Below, in pieces: positions 33,412 through 47,012 of a DNA stretch of 64,000 bases. Each line of letters starts with the position of its first letter. Position 1 is the first letter of the stretch. Both the position numbers and the translations under genes were made by a program. Under the pieces are notes generated by a model. That model was not told the origin of the DNA, searched no databases, and saw nothing but the letters and a program-made list of their open reading frames with translations. The stretch is taken from positions 8,137,179 through 8,201,178 of the forward strand of contig CAVNZM010000005.1 of NCBI GenBank assembly GCA_963693365.1, read 5' to 3'. Origin of the DNA: Amoebidium appalachense (taxonomy: Eukaryota > Protista > Ichthyosporea).

Positions 33412-34613
33412 ATGGCTGCCGTCGTAGAGTCCCCAATGCAAAAGGTCCCGGGCCCGGCACCTGCTGAGGGCCCGGCAAAGGCCGCAGAGCCCAGCAAGAA
33501 GCAGACCTTCAAATATGAGCTGATACGGCCCGGCATGTTCGAGTCCACAAAGCACTACTGTGAGTGGCTGCCTGCATGATACGATGTGCATAGATGCAGT
33601 AAACAGGCATGCGGTACACGCTATGCATGCCAGGTGTGTGTCCACGCACACAAACACACACACACCCCTTTAGTGACCATACATATGTTACGTCTAAGGT
33701 CTATGATGGAGGTGTGCAGCTTTAACACACAGCATACCGACCGTCAGTGTTGGTCTAGTGGTGTGCAGCCTGCCCAACACAGTACCGGGATTGTTGTTGT
33801 TTTTCCCTGGGGTGTGGGGGAAAACACATATAGCGGGTTGGTGCCATTGGGAGGGTGAGTTGGCTGACCTTTGCCCTGTGCAGACACACGGGTGCTGAAT
33901 GCGCAGATCCACCCCACGGTCAAGTTCTTCATGGGGCTGAGTCCCGAACGCATCGTGGCGCGCTATGCGCACCTGCACCCGCACGTCAACAGGGAGACCC
34001 TGATGGAGGCGCTCCTCTACTCCCCCCACCACCTGCGCTGGGCCGGCTGCGACCTCATGCACACCACCACGGACGCGGGCCACCGCAGCATGGTGGTGAT
34101 CGAGACCAACTCGTGCCCGTCGGGCATGAAGAGCACGCCGCTGTTTGACGAGATGGAGGAGGAGGGCGGCTATGCCACGCTGCTGCGCCGTAGCTTCCTG
34201 GGCTACGTGGACACCATGCAAGACCTGCCCGAGGGGGACCTGGCCGTGGTCTATGACAAGAACTACATGGAGGCCAGCGGGTACGCCGCCTGCCTGGCCG
34301 ACCTGACCGGCAAGCCCGTGCACCTGGTGCCGTTTATGTACAACGACCCCGACCCCCCCGTGCGCTTTGTGGGCGGCGACCAGGCCGCCCTGCCCGTCAT
34401 GGAGATCCGCACCCCTGCCGGCCAGTGGATACCGATTAGGGCCGCCATGCGCTATGTCACCCAGCGCCCCTGGGACCGCATCCCTGCCGTCACCCGCACC
34501 TTCATTCTCAACCCAGTGCTGGCATGTCTGGCTGGCGGCCGAAACAAGGTGTGGGGGGGTGTTCGTATTTGGAAGGGGTAGATGGACTTGGGATGGATAT
34601 ACCTTGTGTGTGT

Positions 34614-34660
<47 letters not shown>

Positions 34661-35926
34661 TTCATTTGAGAAGGGGGTATTGCCAACGGTTAATGGGAAC
34701 AGTGGGCGCCAGGTATGAGAGTGTGTAGGGATGTGATTATCAGGCAGAGAGGAAATGGGGGCCTTAGATATGACTGGGGATAAGAATTGGGTACCAGGTA
34801 TGACTGGGGATAAGAATTGGGTACCAGGTATGAGTGGGGTTTATGGGTACCAGGTATGAGTGGGATAAGAATTGGGTACCAGGTATGAGTGGGGATAAGA
34901 ATTGGGTGCCAGGTATGAGTGGGGATAAAAATTGGGTGCCAGGTATGAGTGGGGATAAGAATTGGGTGCCAGGTATGAGTGGGGATAAGAATTGGGTGCC
35001 AGGTATGAGTGGGGATAAGAATTGGGTACCAGGTATGAGTGGGGATAAGAAGTGGGTGCCAGGTATGAGTGGGGATAAGAATGGGTTATCAGGTATGAGT
35101 TGGGATAAGAATTGGGTGTTAGGTATGAGTGGGGATAAGAATTGGGTACCAGGTATGAGTGGGGATAAGAATTGGGTGTTAGGTATGAGTGGGGATAAGA
35201 ATTGGGTGCCAGGTATGAGTGGGGATAAGAATTGGGTGTTAGGTATGAGTGGGGATAAGAATTGGGTGCCAGGTATGAGTGGGGATAAGAATTGGGTACC
35301 AGGTATGAGTGGGGATAAGAATTGGGTGCCAGGTATGAGTGGGGATAAGAATTGGGTACCAGGTATAAGTGGGTATGAGGGGTTACTAGGTAAGTAGGGG
35401 GTGAGAGGAGGAAGGAGTCCACAGAAGTATGTGTGTGTTTGGGGGGGAAGGGGGCAGCCAAGGTGTTCGATACCTCGTATTTCCTAATACACTAGCCATC
35501 TACACCATAAAACATTCACCAACTTGCAGACTAGGCTGCACATTGAAATCAGAAATATAGGGGGGGGGGGGGGGGGGGGGGGGGGTAATACGGTATGCTC
35601 TCGTGCTTGGGGGTGGCAACTGAGGGCCTTGGGCAGATGGTTGCAGCCAAGGCCTACGACGCATACAACGTGGACCTGCTTGCATCGGGCCTGCACATCC
35701 GCACCCCCCACACCATCCGTGACGTCACATGGGACGACATCCCCAAGTGGGTCGAGCGGTTTGGCGGCTACGCCGTGGTCAAGATCCCCTACTCAAATGC
35801 CGGCCAGGGCGTGTACACCATCACGAACCAGGTACAGGGGCAGGGGTGGTGTAGCCGCACACACCCACTGCGTGCACACAAAGGCACTGTATGCACACAC
35901 ACAGGTGCTGCATGCAAACACACACG

Positions 35927-35962
<36 letters not shown>

Positions 35963-36013
35963 TATGGCCATATGGGGGGGGGGGGGGGGGGGGCTCTGCA
36001 TGCACACATACAG

Positions 36014-36051
<38 letters not shown>

Positions 36052-36152
36052 CACTGCATCCACACACACATGCTCTGCATGCACGCACACACAAAGGCAT
36101 TGCATGCACATACACGGAGAGGCATTGCATACGCACATACACAACCACAGGC

Positions 36153-36193
<41 letters not shown>

Positions 36194-36319
36194 ATTGCAC
36201 ACACACACACACAGGCACGGCATGCACACACACGCAGGCACTGCATGCACACACACACATCCCCCCCCCCCCCCCCCCTCCTACACACACACACACACAC
36301 ACAGAGGCACTGCATATGG

Positions 36320-36362
<43 letters not shown>

Positions 36363-36446
36363 CACTACATATGCACATACACACACACACACACACACAC
36401 AGGCACTGCATATGCACACACACACACACAAGCACTGCATATGCAC

Positions 36447-36481
<35 letters not shown>

Positions 36482-36493
36482 CAGGCACTGCAT

Positions 36494-36534
<41 letters not shown>

Positions 36535-37722
36535 CACCGCATATTCACACACACACAGGCACTGCATATGCATCCACACACACACACACACACACACCCA
36601 GGCACTGAATATGCACACACACACGGGCACTGCATATGCACACACACACAGGCACTGCATGCACACACGGCCATTGTACGCACGTGGCAGCACAAGGCAG
36701 CCACTGGCCCGTCACACTGCCCTTCTCTTGGTGCACTCATGACCCGTGCATATGGGTGGCTGTGCCCCGGGAAGAAGATGGGGTGCAAGGTCGGGGGGGG
36801 CGGGGGGGGTGGGAGGGAGGGTTTGCACCCATACCCTCCGGTGCATCTATGCAGCACAGCCACACGAACATACGCACACACATGCACAGAGACATGCACA
36901 CACACGTTCTGGGACTGCATGGGACACACACACACGCCGACACAGTGTGCACGGCTCATGAGCATACACCTGCACGTGCACTGTGCAGAACCACCCCACT
37001 TTAGGTGCACCACTGTGCCCCCATTGCATGGCCACATGGCCACATGTGTGCATTCATATTAACTGGCGGGGTGCATGTAGGAGGAGCTGCAGGTGTTCCA
37101 GGAGAAGGAGAAGGGGGGCCGCTACGACAAGTTCATAGTGCAGAGCCTGATCAGCAACTTCAAGTGGTGCACGGACCAGGGCGGCACCGTGGGCCGGCTG
37201 TACCACGTGGGCACCATCCCCAACCGCAAGGCCGAGACCTACGTCAGCGACCTGCGCCTCATGCTCAGCGGCAGCACCAAGGGCTTCAGGGTCGTGGGCA
37301 TGTACGCCCGCAGGGCACGGGAGCCCCTCAGCGACCATTTGGGGCCAGGGGCCAGCAGCTGGAGCCAGCTGGGCACCAACCTCAGTGTGGTGCAGGGCAA
37401 CGGCCTGTTCGACACGGAGAGCGACCGGCTGCTGCTGATGGACCGCAAGGACTTCAACATGCTGGGCATGGGCCTGGACGATCTGATCGACGCATACGTG
37501 CAGACCGTGCTGGCCGTGGTGGCCATCGACCGCATGGCCGACCGCCTGACCATCGGGGGCAGATTCAGCAGGCTGCTGTTCAGGTCGGTCAATGATGACG
37601 AGGCACTGCTGGAGGAGATCAAGGACGTGGGCTTTGAGAAGACCCCTGCAGCACTCATGGACTGGATGGGCCTGGCTAGCCCCACAGTCAAGCACGCCAA
37701 TGCGGGGCACGACCAGCAGTAG
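33412..37722 (+). CDS. Circularly permuted ATP-grasp (peptide/amide ligase-like) protein, 549 aa, 4 coding exons
   Basis: Exons 33412-33559, 33884-34548, 35637-35831 and 37081-37722 splice in frame (1650 nt). N-terminal [14 protein letters not shown] precedes [28 protein letters not shown] and GTNL. This is the motif order of circularly permuted ATP-grasps. Confidence 0.75.
34771..35372. repeat. 30-bp intronic minisatellite (GGGTRCCAGGTATGAGTGGGGATAAGAATT)
   Basis: About 20 tandem units with no spacers, inside intron 2 of the ATP-grasp gene. Confidence 0.95.
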
Positions 37723-38421
37723 ACGAAGCACATATCATGGACGCTACTAATTAGGCCTAGGACATACCCTGCACCATGTCAGTTTGTACCACACACCGCA
37801 TGAAAGGACAGATGCCTGGCCTGGGGCCGCCGGCCGGCAGTCACCGGGCACAGAGGGTTTCATGATCTGCTCGAAGAATTCACATGCATATAATCGTATC
37901 TGGATATCTTACGTGCTTGGGCTGATGATACGTGCACTAGTTCTGTACATGGATAATAGACCTGCTTGCATGTGTGCATATTACCGTGAATCAACATGGG
38001 GCATGTGCAGCTATTGCTCGAGCCTGTGGCTCGGTTCATATATATTCCTAGCTTGTGGTACGTGTGGGTCAAGTGTTTCCAAATTGGTGATTGTCCGTGT
38101 TTGCCTCCCTCCCCTCCCGGGGCCTTCCACCCACCCACCCACCATGATTCCCTTCCGGGCCCCGTCGTTTGTGTGAATAGGCATGCAGTCCTGGGGGTGC
38201 CCGGAGGGGTGGGGGTGGAGGGGACTCCTCGGGGGTAATTTGCGTCGTGGGACTTAGTGTACATTAGTGCATCGGATGCTATTATGGTTACTGGGAGGTT
38301 GCTTGACATGAGCTGCATGGACTACTTGTACAGGATGATTGGTCCACACACAATCGATGCATATACGTATACATACACATAATCCATGCATGTACGTATA
38401 CGTAGGGCTACCTTTCCGTTA

Positions 38422-38991
38422 TCTATTAACTAATATTATAACGACCGTTTGACCTTCCCGTAATCTGGCCCAGTGACTAATCACTGACTATGCAACCCGC
38501 GGAGATTTGCATAGCGAAATCAAAAGCCGAAACGCGCATAAAACCAAGCAGCATAGAAGAATATTAACGTGTGGAGGTGTTTGTGTCAAAAAATATAAAA
38601 AGTTTAAGTCTAAAATTGATTCAGAACAAAGTATTAGAGGGCAAAAAGGGAGGTAAGCAGCCGCTACGTGTGGCTGTAGGTGTCAGGGTATGAACTAATG
38701 CAACCCTGAGTCAAAAAGGACCGTTCTCGGCTACATGCCATGGCGCTCGGGTATGACTATTGGTCTAGCAAAAATAATAAAACATCGTAAAAAATCCATT
38801 TTTTTACTTTTCGATAAATGCTATGATAAAAATCACAACGTGCCCGATGCCGATTTCGCCTCCTTTCGATAGTACGTACGACGAATGAACTTGGAGAATT
38901 GGACGCCATAAGTAAATATATCAACCAATGAACACCTTTTGACGCATCAAGTAAATATATCCAACTATGCATGTGACGAGGATGGACACGT

Positions 38992-39028
<37 letters not shown>

Positions 39029-39121
39029 TACGCACACACATTCACTCACACACACCCACACAAACTTAGACACTCGTTCTATTCACTCACACATTCTTTC
39101 GCGCTCACGCACTCTAATCAA

Positions 39122-39196
<75 letters not shown>

Positions 39197-39426
39197 AACA
39201 CACACACAAACATTCACACACACCCATTGTATGCACACACACACACACATTCGCCACACGTGCACACACACACACACACACACAAATACACACCCACACA
39301 CACATGTACACACATACACACACACACACGCATACAAACACACACACAAACATTCACACACACCCATTGTCTTCAGACACACATTCTTTCGCGCTCCCGC
39401 ACTCCAACCAACAACACAACGCACAA

Positions 39427-39477
<51 letters not shown>

Positions 39478-39607
39478 ACCACACACATTCGCACACACAA
39501 CCACATAAAGGCTCCCCATCAATCTTATGTTTCCCGAAAACTTTGCCATACTCATCCACTTTGACTCGTTTTAAGCGGCGGCGACAGCCGGCGCTTAGAC
39601 CTCCTTG
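38422..39607 (+). mobile_element. Non-autonomous Helitron-like element A (about 1.19 kb)
   Basis: 5' end A|TCTATTAACTAATATTATAACG. 3' hairpin AAGCGGCGGC-GACA-GCCGGCGCTT (39573-39596) followed by CTTG|T. The 3' end is nearly identical to elements B and C. No ORF; CA-rich body. Confidence 0.7.
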
Positions 39608-39774
39608 TATACAAGTAGGTCTGTGCGCCGGCTGTCGCCGGCGCCAAAACATAACGAAACAGTTATTGATGTTGGGTTGTGTGGTTGTTACCACTCCCCC
39701 CCTCCCCCCCCCTGCCTGCCCCCCCCACCTCACACATTCCCCTCCCTCCCCTCCCTGGCCCTTTGGCCTCACGC

Positions 39775-39826
<52 letters not shown>

Positions 39827-40417
39827 CCCCTCCCAATCCTGCAGTTGCCGGATCTGCCAAATGTTATGACCCTTTTCCCTTTCATTTAACCCCCCTCCTC
39901 CCCCCTCCCCCCACTCCCCCCCCCCCCCCCCCCCCCCCCCTCCTTCTTTCTGGCCCCCCTCCCACGGGGCACCCTGGGCAGTGGCGGCGGTAGCATCCCC
40001 CCCCCCCCCCCCCCCCCCCCCCCCCGTCGAAATTGCAAAGTGAGGTAATGGGTATGAGCAAATTATGTGGGAAGTGATGGGAGTGGGGCCAGCCCAAATA
40101 AGTTAAATTCATTTATTTTGCCAGAAGGAGGCAGCCTGTATGGCAACTATGAACAGCTAAGTAGGTAAACCTACCCCTCCCCCCCCTTCCCCCCCCTTCT
40201 GCCTTCCCCTCCCCCTTAGAAACCCCCCGCCCCCCTCCCCCCCAGCTACCCCCCCCCCCCCCACCCCTTTTTTTTAATTATTTTGCCATCCCCCCCCCCC
40301 CCCCTCCCCCCTCCCCCTGCTGCCCCCTGTGTCCTTCATGTCAAGGACCTGAATATTTATGACATGGTGCACGTGGTACCAAAAGCAGTGAATGGTGGTG
40401 TGTTGTGATTAATGTAA

Positions 40418-40950
40418 TCAGGGGGGGTTGAAGATATTGCGAATGTAGGGAGAAACGACATTGAAGGTGTAGGCAATGGCATTTGCAGAAATGTCATTTT
40501 CATGTACACAGATAAGTATGTGTCTACGTGTGCGGACACGGCCTAGTGCCACATAGAGTTGACCGTGAGCAAACACAGGAGTACGTAAATACAAACCGCA
40601 GACGTCGAGGGTTTGGCCTTGGGATTTGTTAATGGTGAGTCCGTAGGCAAGCTTTAAAGGATACTGTTTTCTATTCACTGTTACACCTCGGGTTGGTTGA
40701 AATTGGAAGGTAAATCTAGGTATGAGAACAGACTCGACAGATCCTAAGGAATCAACTATGCGGTCGCAACGAATGTAGTAATTGTATAGTTCCCTTATGA
40801 TTAGTTTTGTGCCATTGACCAATTGGTGGTGGATGGAGAGGTTTCGCATGAGCATAACTACAGCACCTACCTTGAAAACGAATTTATGGTCAGGTATTCC
40901 TGGGTGGTGCACTGACGCCAAGAAGTCTTCCGTTGGTGAATTTGACGGGC
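40418..40950 (-). pseudogene. Helitron PIF1-family helicase, C-terminal fragment (5'-truncated)
   Basis: PTEDFLASVHHPGIPDHKFVFKVGAVVMLMRNL..LVNGTKL..VLIPR..RKQYPLKLAYGLTINKSQGQTLDVCGLYLRTPVFAHGQLYVALGRV matches Pif1 domain 2B and motifs V/VI typical of Helitron RepHel. Walker A/B and Rep are absent. Confidence 0.92.
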
Positions 40951-41412
40951 ATAACAATACTCCGGGTAGAAACGCCGGCCACAAATAAGCCAAAATAAAA
41001 GTGTGGTAGCAACTAGACGACTTCTAGGTAATACCGCATCACGAACGAACTGCGGCGCTGTGCGTGGCGTATCGTGCCTAAAGCCCAAAATCCCCCTAAA
41101 TCTATGCGCTTGGCGGAGTTCTGCATACATGATTTTGCGGAATTGGTACGGTGCAGAAGGATTCCGGCAGGGCTGTAATTTTCGCCGTAACGATAGCCAT
41201 ACAACATACATGAAAACGCGCTAACGAATAACTTCGGGTAAAAACCTTCTAGAAATGATTATCAAAAAAAAAAAAAAGAGGGACATAAAAGAGGTGGAAT
41301 TTAGGTCCATTTTCTATAAAAAGGGGACCTTCGTCTTCCTGCTGTCACCACATCCACATTTCAACACCCCGTTCACAGCTCGTTGATTCACGGACAGTGA
41401 CACGTCGTGAAA

Positions 41413-42561
41413 ATGAATCTGCACCCACACATGATGCATGCATCCTTCCTTATGGATGTCCTCTCGGTTGTGATGCTTCCCACCAACCTTAAGCCCGGTG
41501 AGAGGCACACCGCTGCTATGGTCAAGGGCAGGAACACCACCATGTGCCTGAATGCCACGAACAACGCCGAACCCAACATGCAGATCGTCGTCATGGTGTT
41601 CAACAACGAGAAGGACCCCAAGTACTTGGAGATGGCCAAAAACAGTGCTGGTAGCGTCGTCCATGTGCAGGGCCGTTTGTCTGCCAATGTGGAAACATTT
41701 GTCGACCGTAACCGCCCTGGAGCCACCCATGTGATCAAGGGTGCCGGGATCGTCACCCAAGTTGTCTCGGCAGCTCATAAGGCCGCATTCAAGACCATGG
41801 TTGCACCCCACATGTGGAGTGCGTATGGCGCCGTTGTGCTCGGGATTGAGAAAGTCTACAAACCCAAGATCAACCTGACAGACGCCGATGCAGCGCTGGC
41901 AAGTGTGGATATGAAGTGCATGGGGCGCATCTATGAGGTCGGGAATAAGGTGGATCGTTACATTGGTCAACCCGTGTGCATGGTGCGTGCCGTTGCCAAG
42001 ATGCTCCGTAACAAAGACGGCACCCTTGACCACGTACTGGAGGGAGGCATCGTCCAGGCGTCCGGTGAGCTTACCTACATCCAGGGCAAGAACATTTTCG
42101 TTCTCGACACCACTGTGGGTGGGACATGTGTGCTCGTGCGGGGACCGGCTGCCACTACTGCTGCCACACCCACTGGATCCGACATCAAACTGGGCAACCT
42201 GCAGCTGTCTGGGGCGAGCAACTCTGCCCTTCGTGGATTGGCTGCTATTCTATCCTATGATGATGTGAACGAGGAAAACGGGGAGAAGGAAGACATGAAC
42301 GAGGACGAGCCCGTTGCCACCCCTACCAAGAAACGTAAGATGGGGGCAAAGCTTTTCCTGTCGACCGACGACGACGACGTCCCTCTGAAGGATATTGCAG
42401 CCATCAAGAAAACCAAGGACAACGACAATTTGATGGGCCGCGTCAATTCCGATGTTGACGAGCCCGAGGATTCCAATTCGGAGGGAGAAGACGGTGACGA
42501 TGACATCGAGGAAGATTACGGCTTGCTCGATGGTGCAGCCATTTTCAACGTTGAGGATTAA
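41413..42561 (+). CDS. Intronless 382-aa Helitron-borne protein; putative tandem OB-fold ssDNA-binding protein with NLS and acidic tail
   Basis: Uninterrupted ORF with normal composition in AT-rich flanks. Two GxxVxxxGxL motifs (GSVVHVQGRL, GGIVQASGEL) in beta-rich segments, TPTKKRK, and a D/E-rich C-terminus. The ORF is well supported; the fold is inferred. Confidence 0.7.
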   Translation: MNLHPHMMHASFLMDVLSVVMLPTNLKPGERHTAAMVKGRNTTMCLNATNNAEPNMQIVVMVFNNEKDPKYLEMAKNSAGSVVHVQGRLSANVETFVDRNRPGATHVIKGAGIVTQVVSAAHKAAFKTMVAPHMWSAYGAVVLGIEKVYKPKINLTDADAALASVDMKCMGRIYEVGNKVDRYIGQPVCMVRAVAKMLRNKDGTLDHVLEGGIVQASGELTYIQGKNIFVLDTTVGGTCVLVRGPAATTAATPTGSDIKLGNLQLSGASNSALRGLAAILSYDDVNEENGEKEDMNEDEPVATPTKKRKMGAKLFLSTDDDDVPLKDIAAIKKTKDNDNLMGRVNSDVDEPEDSNSEGEDGDDDIEEDYGLLDGAAIFNVED

Positions 42562-43147
42562 CTTCCAGTGCTGCAGTGCCCATAGCCCATTTCCACTATG
42601 TATTGTTTGTAATAATATATTTTGATTTATTTGACGTTATCTAATACTATTGGGGATAGAACAAACAAACCAAAACAATGATGTTCTGTTTAGTTGTGGG
42701 AATTAATTGCATGGAATTTTAATAGCACTGTGTTATCAGTCTAGGGAGAGATTGCCATTGCCGAAGTACCAAGTTTACTTGTGGTCCTCCAAAAACATGT
42801 AGCTGAAAACCACCAAGTGCAATATGTTTTAAATTGCTTGCAAAAATTTTATAATATTATTATTATCTTGTTGTTTTACTTATTTTACAGAACTGTATGG
42901 TAACCCCCTTTGTGATATGTATGGGCACGCAATAAAACTTTCCACGTGCACTGAGTGCCAGGTGGGCAAGATATTTCCGTGCATACTTGCTTATCTTTCC
43001 GTCGAATAAATCCAGTCAAAAGAAAGAAAAATTGGCACCCCCCCGAAATGTTCCCGAACATAAAATCATCATTCTACGGTGTGTGTCAATATACCATGCT
43101 CACAAGTCAGTACTGCAATTATACTATTCTCAGTTTACTTCAAAGCA

Positions 43148-43182
<35 letters not shown>

Positions 43183-43682
43183 CCCCTCTTCCCATTCCCT
43201 GCCCCCCCAAATTTTTTTAAGTTATGCTTTTCATACTCAGTGACTGCAATCATGGCACCCGTGTTTTCTAGATATATTTCCTTTCATTGTGTTCAACGTC
43301 TATGTGTGTGTGTGTGTGTGTGTGTGTGCATGTTTGTGTGTGTGTGAATGTGTGTGTGTGGGCCAAGTTAAGGTTGTATGCGCTTCTTTCTTCTTAGTTG
43401 TTTTTGTATTCTATTCGATTATTACTTTGTGTGTAAATGTGGAAAAAAAACAAATAAAAAAACAACGACCACCGCCCAGCTTGAATCACCCTAGCTCTAG
43501 TGTAAAACAATAATCATTATCAGTCACAAACCCTTCTACTACACTCGCCCCAAATGTCATATTCACATTACTGAGTTGATTTAGTTGTGTTTTTTACTCT
43601 ATTTTTTTCAACAACTGTCTGCTATTAAACAGTAAAATGTACATCTGTTTGTGTGTGTGTGTGTGTGTGTGTGCCACAGGCC

Positions 43683-43730
<48 letters not shown>

Positions 43731-43891
43731 ATATAGAATTTACCGTCCTCATCCCCGTGTCCCCCTAAACCGGTGTTAGCGGACCTTTGAGGTTTTTGTG
43801 ATTGGATTGGTAGTTCTATTACATTAAAATTTTCAAAATGTCGTTGTACCAATGATATAATACGTTGTAAAACAAATGTCGCCGAATTTCT

Positions 43892-44600
43892 CTAAAAAAA
43901 GTGCGTTCCATTCTGGGTTAGAAACCCAGACCGTTTTGATACGGGAATCACCTGATCTCTGCCGTCATTCAGCCCAGCGCGTTCACAGTGAATCCGAAAC
44001 CGCTGGTTTTTTTCTTTTTATTTCAAAGCCCCGAGTACGTACATCCTCTCGGGCCCAACTTTACGGCACTATATTTCAATTTTCTCATTATCAAATATAT
44101 AGTTATTTTAGGCTTTTTCATTAGTATCGCAAGAATATTTAGCGATTTTGATGTCATAAAAACAACTAAGCAACGTTTCGATGGTTTTTGATGCCTCACA
44201 AAATTGCCTTAGGTCCCCTCCAAATTCCGGATTTGAGGTCCGGCACTAAAAAAGGTGCGTTCCATTCTGGGTTAGAAACGAAAACCGTTTTGATACGGGG
44301 ATCACCTGATCTCTGCCGTCATTCAGCCCAGCGCGTTCACAGTAGACTCCGAAACCGCTGGTTTTTTTCTTTTTACTTCAAAGCCCCGAGTACGTACATC
44401 CTCTCGGGCCCAACTTTAGGGCACTATATTTCAATTTTCTCATTATCAAATATATAGTTATTTTAGGCTTTTTCATTAGTATCGCAAGAATATTTAGCGA
44501 TTTTGATGTCATAAAAACAACTAAGCAACGTTTCGATGGTTTTTGATGCCTCACAAAATGGCCTTTGGTCCCCTCCAAATTCCGGATTTGAGGTCCGGCA
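43892..44600. repeat. Tandem duplication of about 354 bp in the 5' subterminal region of Helitron B
   Basis: Units 43892-44245 and 44246-44600 are near-identical. Copy C has a single inverted unit (about 44679-45038). Confidence 0.92.
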
Positions 44601-44653
44601 AACAACGCATTATATATATTGTTAATATAATGCGTTGTTTGCCGGACCTCAAA

Positions 44654-45200
44654 TCAACAATATATATAATGCGTTGTTTGCCGGACCTCAAATCCGGAAT
44701 TTGGAGGGGACCTAAGCCCATTTTGTGAGGCATCAAAAACCATCGAAACATTGCTTAGTTGTTTTTATGACATCAAATTCGCTAAATATTCTTGCGATAC
44801 TAATGAAAAAGCCTAAAATAACTATATATATGATAATGAGAAAACTGAAATATAGTGCCCTAAAGTTGGGCCCGAGAGGATGTACGTACTCGGGGCTTTG
44901 AAATAAAAAGAAAAAAACCAGCGGTTTCGGAGTCTACGTATACTGTGAACACGCTGGGCTGAATGACGGCAGAGATCAGGTGATTCCCGTATCAAAACGG
45001 TTTTCGTTTCTAACCCAGAATGGAACGTACTTTTTTTAGAGAAATTCGGCGACATTTGTTTTACGAAGTACCATATCATTGGTACAACGACATTTTGAAA
45101 CTTTTAATGTAATAGAACTACCAATCCAATCACAAAAACCTCAAAGGTCTGCTAACACCGGTTTAGGGGGACACGGGGATGAGGACGGTAAATTCTATAT

Positions 45201-45275
<75 letters not shown>

Positions 45276-46211
45276 GGCCTGTGGCACACACACACACACA
45301 CACACACAAACACATGTACATTTTAGTGTTTAATAGCTATAGGCAGACAGTTGTTGGAAAAAAATAGAGTAGAAAACACAACTAAATCAACTCAGTAATG
45401 TGAATATGACATTTAGGGCGAGTGTACTAGAAGGGTTTGTGGCTGATAATGATTATTTTTTTACACTAGAGCTAGGGTGATTCAACCTCTCCATCCACCA
45501 CCAATTGGTCAATGGCGCAAAAGTAATCATACAGTTACTACATTCGTTGCGACCGCATAGTTGATTCCTTAGGATCTGTCGAGTCTGTTCTCATACCTAG
45601 ATTTACCTTCCAATTTCAACCAACCCGAGGTGTAACAGTGAATAGAAAACAGTATCCTCTAAAGCTTGCCTACGGACTCACCATTAACAAGTCCCAAGGC
45701 CAAACCCTCGACGTCTGCGGTTTGTATTTACGTACCCCGGTGTTTGCTCACGGTCAACTCTATGTGGCACTTGGCCGTGTCCGCACACGTAGACACATAC
45801 TTATCTGTGTACATGAAAATGACAAAGTTTCTGCAAATGTCATTGCCTACACCGTCAATGTCGTTTCTCCCTACATTCGCAATATCTTCAACCCCCCCTG
45901 ATTACATAATCACAACACACCATCAGTCACTGCTTTTGGTACCACCATGTCATAAATATTCAGGTCCTTGAGATGAAGGACGCAGGGGGCAGCAGGGCGA
46001 GGGGGGGGGGGGGGGGGGGGGGGTTGAAGGGGGAGGGGAAGGGGGGGAGGGGGGGGGGGGGTAGGTTTACCTACTTAGCTGTGCATAGTTGCCATACAGG
46101 CTGCCTCCTTCTGGCAAAATATATAAATTTAACTTATTTGGGCTGGCCCCACTCCCATCACTTCCCACCATCATTTGCTCATAGCCATCCCCGATCACTT
46201 TGCAATTTCGA

Positions 46212-46265
<54 letters not shown>

Positions 46266-46586
46266 TACATAGTGTGCTACCGCCGCCACTGCCCAGGGTC
46301 CCCCGTGGGAGGGGGGCAAGAAAGGGGGGGGGGGGGGGGGGTTAAATGAAAGGGGAAAGGGTCATAACATTTGGCAGATCCGGCAACTGCAGGATTGGGG
46401 GGGGGGGAAGCATGACACACAGGGCCAGGGGGGGGGGGGGGGGGGAAGCGTGAGGCGGGGGGGCCAGGGAGGGGGGGGGGGGCCGGGGGGGGGAGGGGGG
46501 AGGGAGGTAACAACCACACAACCCAACAACAATAACTGTCTCGTTATGTTTTGGCGCCGGCGACAGCCGGCGCACAGACCTACTTG
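44654..46586 (+). mobile_element. Helitron C (about 1.93 kb), inverted and further-deleted sister of B
   Basis: 5' end A|TCAACAATATATATAATGCG. 44654-45485 is the reverse complement of B's 5' arm and 45484-46586 of B's 3' arm. Hairpin at 46554-46573, 9-nt spacer, CTTG (46583-46586)|T. Confidence 0.88.
45486..45901 (+). pseudogene. Second PIF1 helicase C-terminal fragment, frameshifted
   Basis: RKQYPLKLAYGLTINKSQGQTL..HGQLYVALGRV. Relative to B it has an 11-nt deletion near 45530 and a 3-nt insertion near 45825. Confidence 0.9.
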
Positions 46587-46649
46587 TACACATAATCCAT
46601 GCATATACGTATACATACACATAATCCATGCATATACGTATACATACAC
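46587..46649. repeat. 30-bp minisatellite (CATAATCCATGCATATACGTATACATACA-type), right half; left half at about 38346-38401
   Basis: The same unit occurs in the same orientation on both sides of the Helitron cluster. Confidence 0.85.
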
Positions 46650-47012
46650 GACATAGAGAATTTTACTTGCGCAATGCATGCGTACACACATCAGATGAGG
46701 TGTTCTGGCTATTTTGAATGTTTTCGATTGTTAGAACAAGTCCTTTCGGACAGTACAGCATGACACATACACACGACATAAGCCCCCCACACGTGTGCAA
46801 TGCGCACAACCGACAAACAGAATCCACACATGCCATGCATGTATTCCTGGCACACTGTATTTTTACTTTGTACACGAAATACAGAATTCGATGTATGTAC
46901 AGGACATCTTACACTAATGGTATTGACTAGGGATTTATCGAACTGGCTGTGCACGGCTGCTGGCCAAAACCCAATTCAAGCGCAAGTGGGTTGTGTGTAC
47001 CAGCACCCCCCC

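Follow-up and report, generated by a model that had tools for sequence, protein, structure and literature searches.

An orphan antisense gene within a non-autonomous Helitron of Amoebidium appalachense, possibly encoding a diverged single-stranded DNA-binding accessory protein

What is an intact 382-codon open reading frame (ORF) doing on the opposite strand of a Helitron that is short of most of its RepHel gene? The question is raised by a 64,000-nucleotide stretch of the ichthyosporean Amoebidium appalachense (assembly GCA_963693365.1, contig CAVNZM010000005.1, positions 8,137,179 to 8,201,178; hereafter the window), in which this ORF lies inside a Helitron that we call element B. The answer we favour, tentatively, is that it is an antisense gene of a multi-copy Helitron and likely encodes the element's own, highly diverged accessory protein with an oligonucleotide/oligosaccharide-binding (OB) fold acting on single-stranded DNA (ssDNA). 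The features on which the argument turns are, in window coordinates:

39612..44625, minus strand: element B, a 5014-bp non-autonomous Helitron enclosing the ORF
40418..40951, minus strand: C-terminal remnant of the RepHel Pif1 helicase, about 175 aa, with an open frame and its stop codon
41315..41322, plus strand: TATA-like box about 90 nt 5′ of the ORF's ATG, a putative promoter
41413..42561, plus strand: the orphan ORF, 382 aa, antisense to the Helitron helicase
41434..41790, plus strand: first beta-rich half (aa 8-126), a possible OB domain resembling that of single-stranded DNA-binding proteins (SSBs)
41650-41679, plus strand: GSVVHVQGRL (aa 80-89), in the first half
41791..42147, plus strand: second beta-rich half (aa 127-245), fold unsupported
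42043-42072, plus strand: GGIVQASGEL (aa 211-220), in the second half
42259..42558, plus strand: acidic tail, with aspartate or glutamate at 34 of the last 100 residues
42319-42339, plus strand: basic TPTKKRK (aa 303-309), within the acidic tail

The ORF is a real, protein-coding, gene-like frame, as the initial annotation had held. From the ATG at 41413 to the TAA ending at 42561 it runs for 382 codons without an internal stop, a length reached in none of 2000 shuffles of the surrounding 2.2 kb (40901-43100; longest shuffled ORF, 284 aa), and its codon positions are biased as in genes (G at 42% of first positions; A at 10% and GC at 67% of third positions). The further claim that it is an intronless gene in an intron-rich host stands in part: the frame is unbroken in the DNA and the neighbouring gene is spliced, but the longest host coding stretches in the window measure about 640 nt, making the contrast real yet less than two-fold, and the RNA cover that bears on the point consists of three short pieces of the ORF.

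We class element B as a non-autonomous Helitron of the HLE1 type whose ends are variant. It opens with TTAAC, where Helitrons typically have TC, and is preceded by A; it continues with a non-coding region that carries a 355-bp tandem duplication near the 5′ end, the antisense ORF, some 460 nt that lack RepHel homology, the C-terminal ~175 aa of the helicase, a G-rich tail and the 3′ end, where a hairpin with an 8-bp stem (39625-39644; -13.1 kcal/mol, 13 nt from the end) is followed by CTTG, a variant already published (PMC4289320), rather than CTRR, and then T. The helicase remnant matches 941 longer proteins at E<=0.001 with identities of up to 53%; among the 120 of these that were listed, many also carry Helitron_like_N, and the six best RepHel-type hits show 47-52% identity by tblastn. 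Its best matches are thus RepHel proteins, and the ORF does lie within a Helitron on the strand opposite a Pif1 remnant. RepHel homology ends at about 40951, inside the helicase, and ten RepHel queries (E<=1) recovered no HUH Rep or other RepHel part in or near B, the remaining rows being three weak ones far outside it. The initial placement of the ORF as divergent from a RepHel start is therefore not confirmed.

The ORF is present in several copies. Part of the window is contained in 17 of 24 listed sequencing runs (half or more in 12) from 5 studies, and five runs were examined. In DNA run X1 the contig depth is 986-1247 over the ORF, 598 over the helicase remnant (main contig) and 1390-1557 over a neighbouring element, A, against 187 for a host exon; the ratios to the latter, which are rough as contig depth does not equal copy number, are 5.3-6.7, 3.2 and 7.4-8.3, respectively, with 9.3 for A in run X2. 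One X1 contig of depth 986 (40943-41647) links the start of the ORF with the sequence beside the helicase breakpoint. These ratios from one DNA run suggest about 5-7 copies of the ORF and make a single-copy gene unlikely; contigs drop rare variants and therefore cannot show how alike the copies are. The ORF is accordingly not a one-off retrocopy of a known host gene, the alternative against which the initial annotation had measured itself: besides the several copies, it lacks a homologue (see below), and neither poly-A nor a clear target duplication was found around it.

Does its product bind ssDNA? We consider an SSB-like accessory protein a plausible identity, held at somewhat less than even confidence. 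The two glycine-rich motifs, TPTKKRK and the acidic tail all lie where they were first placed, and TPTKKRK is a likely nuclear localisation signal. A profile built from 32 natural SSB domains scores 3.0 bits against aa 1-126, a value equalled by 52 of 3000 shuffles and 30 of 2162 windows of real proteins (a tail of ~1.5-2%), with the match confined to one strand (aa 78-91); hhalign pairs the first half with SSB at E 0.012, with 0 of 20 shuffles as good, its global mode being uninformative. In AlphaFold2 models of low confidence (pLDDT 32 and 42), the first half is ordered as four strands, a helix and three strands, placing GSVVHVQGRL after the predicted helix, as in the OB-fold topology. SSB chains occupy 10 of the 44 rows listed by Foldseek (105-122 columns aligned), all 44 of them non-significant; fold searches with these two low-confidence models returned nothing significant and speak neither for nor against an OB fold, and a homodimer prediction (0.31 against a mark of 0.32) gave no answer and is not used as evidence. 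Weighing against the SSB-like interpretation, the second half (aa 120-246) has no signal with the SSB profile (1002 of 3000 shuffles as good). The two halves (within aa 1-250) are likewise no more alike than shuffles, of which 448 of 2000 align as well, while the double GxxVxxxGxL motif, found in 2 of 20000 shuffles, is a pattern picked after the sequence had been seen. A tandem-OB fold is therefore not established, being weakly supported in the first half and unsupported in the second. SSBs (PF00436; e.g., Rim1 and the tandem-OB Deinococcus SSB) share with the ORF product the strand motif at aa 78-91, a beta-rich N-terminus and an acidic tail. The acidic C-terminal tail of SSBs ends in a hydrophobic or aromatic residue; the ORF product, in contrast, ends in ...AIFNVED with no terminal aromatic, and differs further in its much longer tail, the patch resembling a nuclear localisation signal and the lack of a significant profile or structure match.

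Helitron transposition proceeds by way of a displaced single strand, and this suggests how such a protein might act. An autonomous parent elsewhere would supply RepHel, which would nick the 5′ end and displace one strand as far as the hairpin-CTTG stop. The product of the ORF, which is possibly transcribed divergently from RepHel, would enter the nucleus via its basic patch, its beta-rich N-terminal part would coat the displaced strand, and its acidic tail may contact the helicase, much as the OB protein Rim1 of yeast binds Pif1 through its C-terminal tail with a 4-5-fold stimulation (PMC3553982).

Nearly as likely is that the ORF is orphan cargo of another function, acquired from an unknown donor and passively amplified like the cap genes of Pleurotus Helitrons. 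The search for homologues favours such an origin. The protein has none among 1.84 billion representatives (word search at near lengths and exhaustive phmmer), nor has its first half among longer proteins (word search); it has no match in Pfam, NCBIfam or PHROGs (a single row at E 0.19), nothing in PDB sequences, IMG/VR, JGI metagenomes or plasmid and phage sets, and no relative among 4515 ORFs from 169 Pif1 loci. The Pfam models of RPA OB domains (DUF223, REPA_OB_2) are likewise unmatched, in line with the earlier view that the protein is not RPA70-like; as a control, an ORF of Helitron locus L071 matched DUF223 at 2.8e-12, and a second candidate, L069, matched nothing. The best ESM Atlas look-alikes (0.85 and 0.76) fall below the 0.9 mark, and those at 0.83-0.85 are unnamed, mostly fungal clusters that serve as a lead only. 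Cargo would also fit the GC content at third codon positions, 67% in the ORF as compared to 45% in the helicase remnant and 92% in the host exon, and the existence of element C (see below), which moved or persists without the ORF; further, orphan genes are known from Helitrons of Pleurotus, one family of which has a CTTG end (PMC4289320). Against it stand the SSB-like signal of the first half, weak as it is, the absence of a poly-A tail and clear target duplication, and the basic patch and acidic tail, which would befit a nuclear nucleic-acid-handling protein.

Improbable, by comparison, is an ORF that belongs to a separate element nested in B in place of RepHel. The ORF is covered at twice the depth of the helicase remnant, there are contig breaks at 40933-40943, a sister sequence carries 599 different letters where the helicase piece would be, and a very-high-copy repeat lies at 42962-43055. 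However, the 25 longest of 42 pairs include no terminal inverted repeat, the candidate target duplications amount to four scattered 8-mers and one 9-mer, and no poly-A follows the ORF.

Slightly less probable still is that the ORF has been under selection since the loss of RepHel, whether because it assists autonomous copies in trans or because the host has domesticated it. Its frame is open though RepHel is deleted, a precedent exists in the rice element Mothra (PMC4683698), and pieces of it occur in X16, which a splice junction reveals to be an RNA run, no listed run being on record as RNA. Yet the useless helicase stub is equally open, so that openness shows youth, and the ORF is probably intact owing to the youth of its copies. 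Eight variants within it (6 nonsynonymous and 2 synonymous, six of the eight coming from one run at a depth of ~2) match the neutral share for 23% synonymous sites and give no sign of purifying selection. In X16 the ORF is covered by three short fragments with a depth of 2-4, where the neighbouring host gene reaches 448, and this cover could reflect weak transcription or DNA carry-over; a single 244-nt piece at depth 2 in X17 was not used. Among the helper, domesticated and recent origins initially offered for the intact frame, recency accounts for it.

That the frame is open by chance, as might be argued from the lack of a homologue and from the codon-aligned antisense frame being also low in stops, is essentially refuted because no shuffle is as long and the plus strand has a strong codon-position bias, along with a TATA-like box upstream.

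If the ORF is, as we favour, a gene of the Helitron itself, the surroundings of B bear on the family to which it belongs:

33931-37722, plus strand: spliced, well-expressed host gene; the element cluster lies in or just past its 3′ untranslated region
38426..39607, plus strand: element A, 1182 bp, non-coding, with only the 3′ terminus in common with B
42962..43055, no strand assigned: very-high-copy short repeat (a depth bin) inside B, downstream of the ORF
44654..46586, plus strand: element C, 1933 bp, of the same family as B, without the ORF

Self-comparison places the three related elements side by side, A and B tail to tail across TATA, and B and C head to head with a 28-nt fragment of the same 5′ terminus between them. 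Each of the three carries a GC-rich hairpin with CTTG at the 3′ end, A before the 5′ end and T after CTTG; the 5′ end is TTAAC in A and B and readable as TCAAC in C, and queries made from the 5′ and 3′ termini show no match to one another, i.e., there are no terminal inverted repeats. In C, a B-type 5′ region (at 43478) is fused to the helicase tail (~40845) at a short microhomology, which places the two ends in a single family. Comparison of the helicase tails of B and C shows 5 synonymous and 2-3 nonsynonymous changes along with a one-codon difference (P ~0.02 under neutrality), which suggests that they derive from two parents with RepHel still working; C would then not be simply a deletion of B.

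Several further observations concern this neighbourhood. The three family members are inserted at one another's termini, and in two DNA runs a B-type 5′ terminus is followed by a further copy of A's 5′ end, which hints at a targeting of the family's own ends. Copies of a 29-nt unit border the composite on both sides (38346-38404, 46588-46675), and from this unit an RNA contig runs into the right flank; another strain may have an empty allele here, or the repeat may have produced a graph artefact. A 776-nt X16 RNA contig (depth 170) carries 599 different letters where the 516-nt helicase tail (40416-40931) would lie, with both flanks of the swapped stretch near-perfect and X1 DNA contigs breaking at both edges, which suggests a sister element whose insert has been swapped. 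The repeat within B reaches a depth of 345,676 in X1, against 187 for the host exon, with many different flanks. In the host gene, an RNA contig joins the exon at 35800-35829 to 37079; two of its exons have no Pfam match and give only a weak NCBIfam row, glutamate ligase (E 0.21).

How new is the arrangement? Genes for ssDNA-binding proteins (RPA, Ssb-like_OB) are recurrent Helitron accessory genes in the HELIANO survey, and the RPA-like ones are regarded as dispensable ancient captures (PMC11417382); Mothra comprises an RPA-only element without RepHel and a deletion derivative (PMC4683698). The description of B's ORF as a possibly undescribed SSB module was to that extent overstated. Like B, Mothra has Helitron termini around an intact candidate ssDNA-binding gene, PHRPA, and a gene-less derivative, but PHRPA is a recognisable RPA homologue with eight exons in a family ending TC...CTAG (PMC4683698), whereas B has a single-frame ORF without an RPA match, keeps a helicase stub and belongs to elements ending TT or TC...CTTG. 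Separate accessory ORFs also stand beside RepHel in HLE1, with RPA enriched downstream, and HLE2, with RPA upstream or Ssb-like_OB (PMC11417382); the ORF of B, which is antisense, differs in lying 5′ of an HLE1-like helicase and in matching neither Pfam model. The Pleurotus elements, compared by description, include orphan genes in HELPO1 and a CTTG 3′ end in HELPO2, but the cap genes are downstream of RepHel and well expressed, and HELPO2 lacks them (PMC4289320). Among 23 of 36 Rep-bearing loci, namely those with some upstream flank, a survey by eye of ORFs of at least 120 aa outside RepHel found no similar upstream ORF on the opposite strand. The consulted parts of the Replitron (PMC10288648) and Ectocarpus (PMC12477816) papers contain nothing on an antisense-ORF arrangement, and the open literature, as distinct from subscription journals, Repbase and supplements (the HELIANO domain table may bear on the point), yielded no SSB-type ORF placed antisense and 5′ to an HLE1 helicase. 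New here are the protein family as such and the place that it occupies. The survey also brought up a 273-aa ORF directly 3′ of a metagenomic RepHel on the same strand (L019:5314-6132), a further unclassified accessory gene of Helitrons for which Pfam gives no significant match, and RepHel loci in records of prokaryote metagenome-assembled genomes (L081, L083, L085-L088, L097), probably eukaryotic contamination of bins.

A bolder proposal, which we rate as rather unlikely, is that B represents an undescribed TT...CTTG Helitron lineage encoding a tandem OB protein of its own, of SSB rather than RPA type; its gene would be transcribed divergently from that of RepHel, and its acidic tail would recruit the Pif1 domain. 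A eukaryotic rolling-circle transposon would then have acquired an ssDNA-binding module independently, in plasmid-like fashion. Should the fold prove not to be OB, the ORF would be one more orphan cargo gene. If, on the other hand, an unrelated-looking SSB has been recruited once again, in another position and orientation, this would point to coating of the displaced strand as a recurring need of rolling-circle transposition, and the ORF would offer a compact, single-frame helper suited to in vitro assays with a Helitron transposase.
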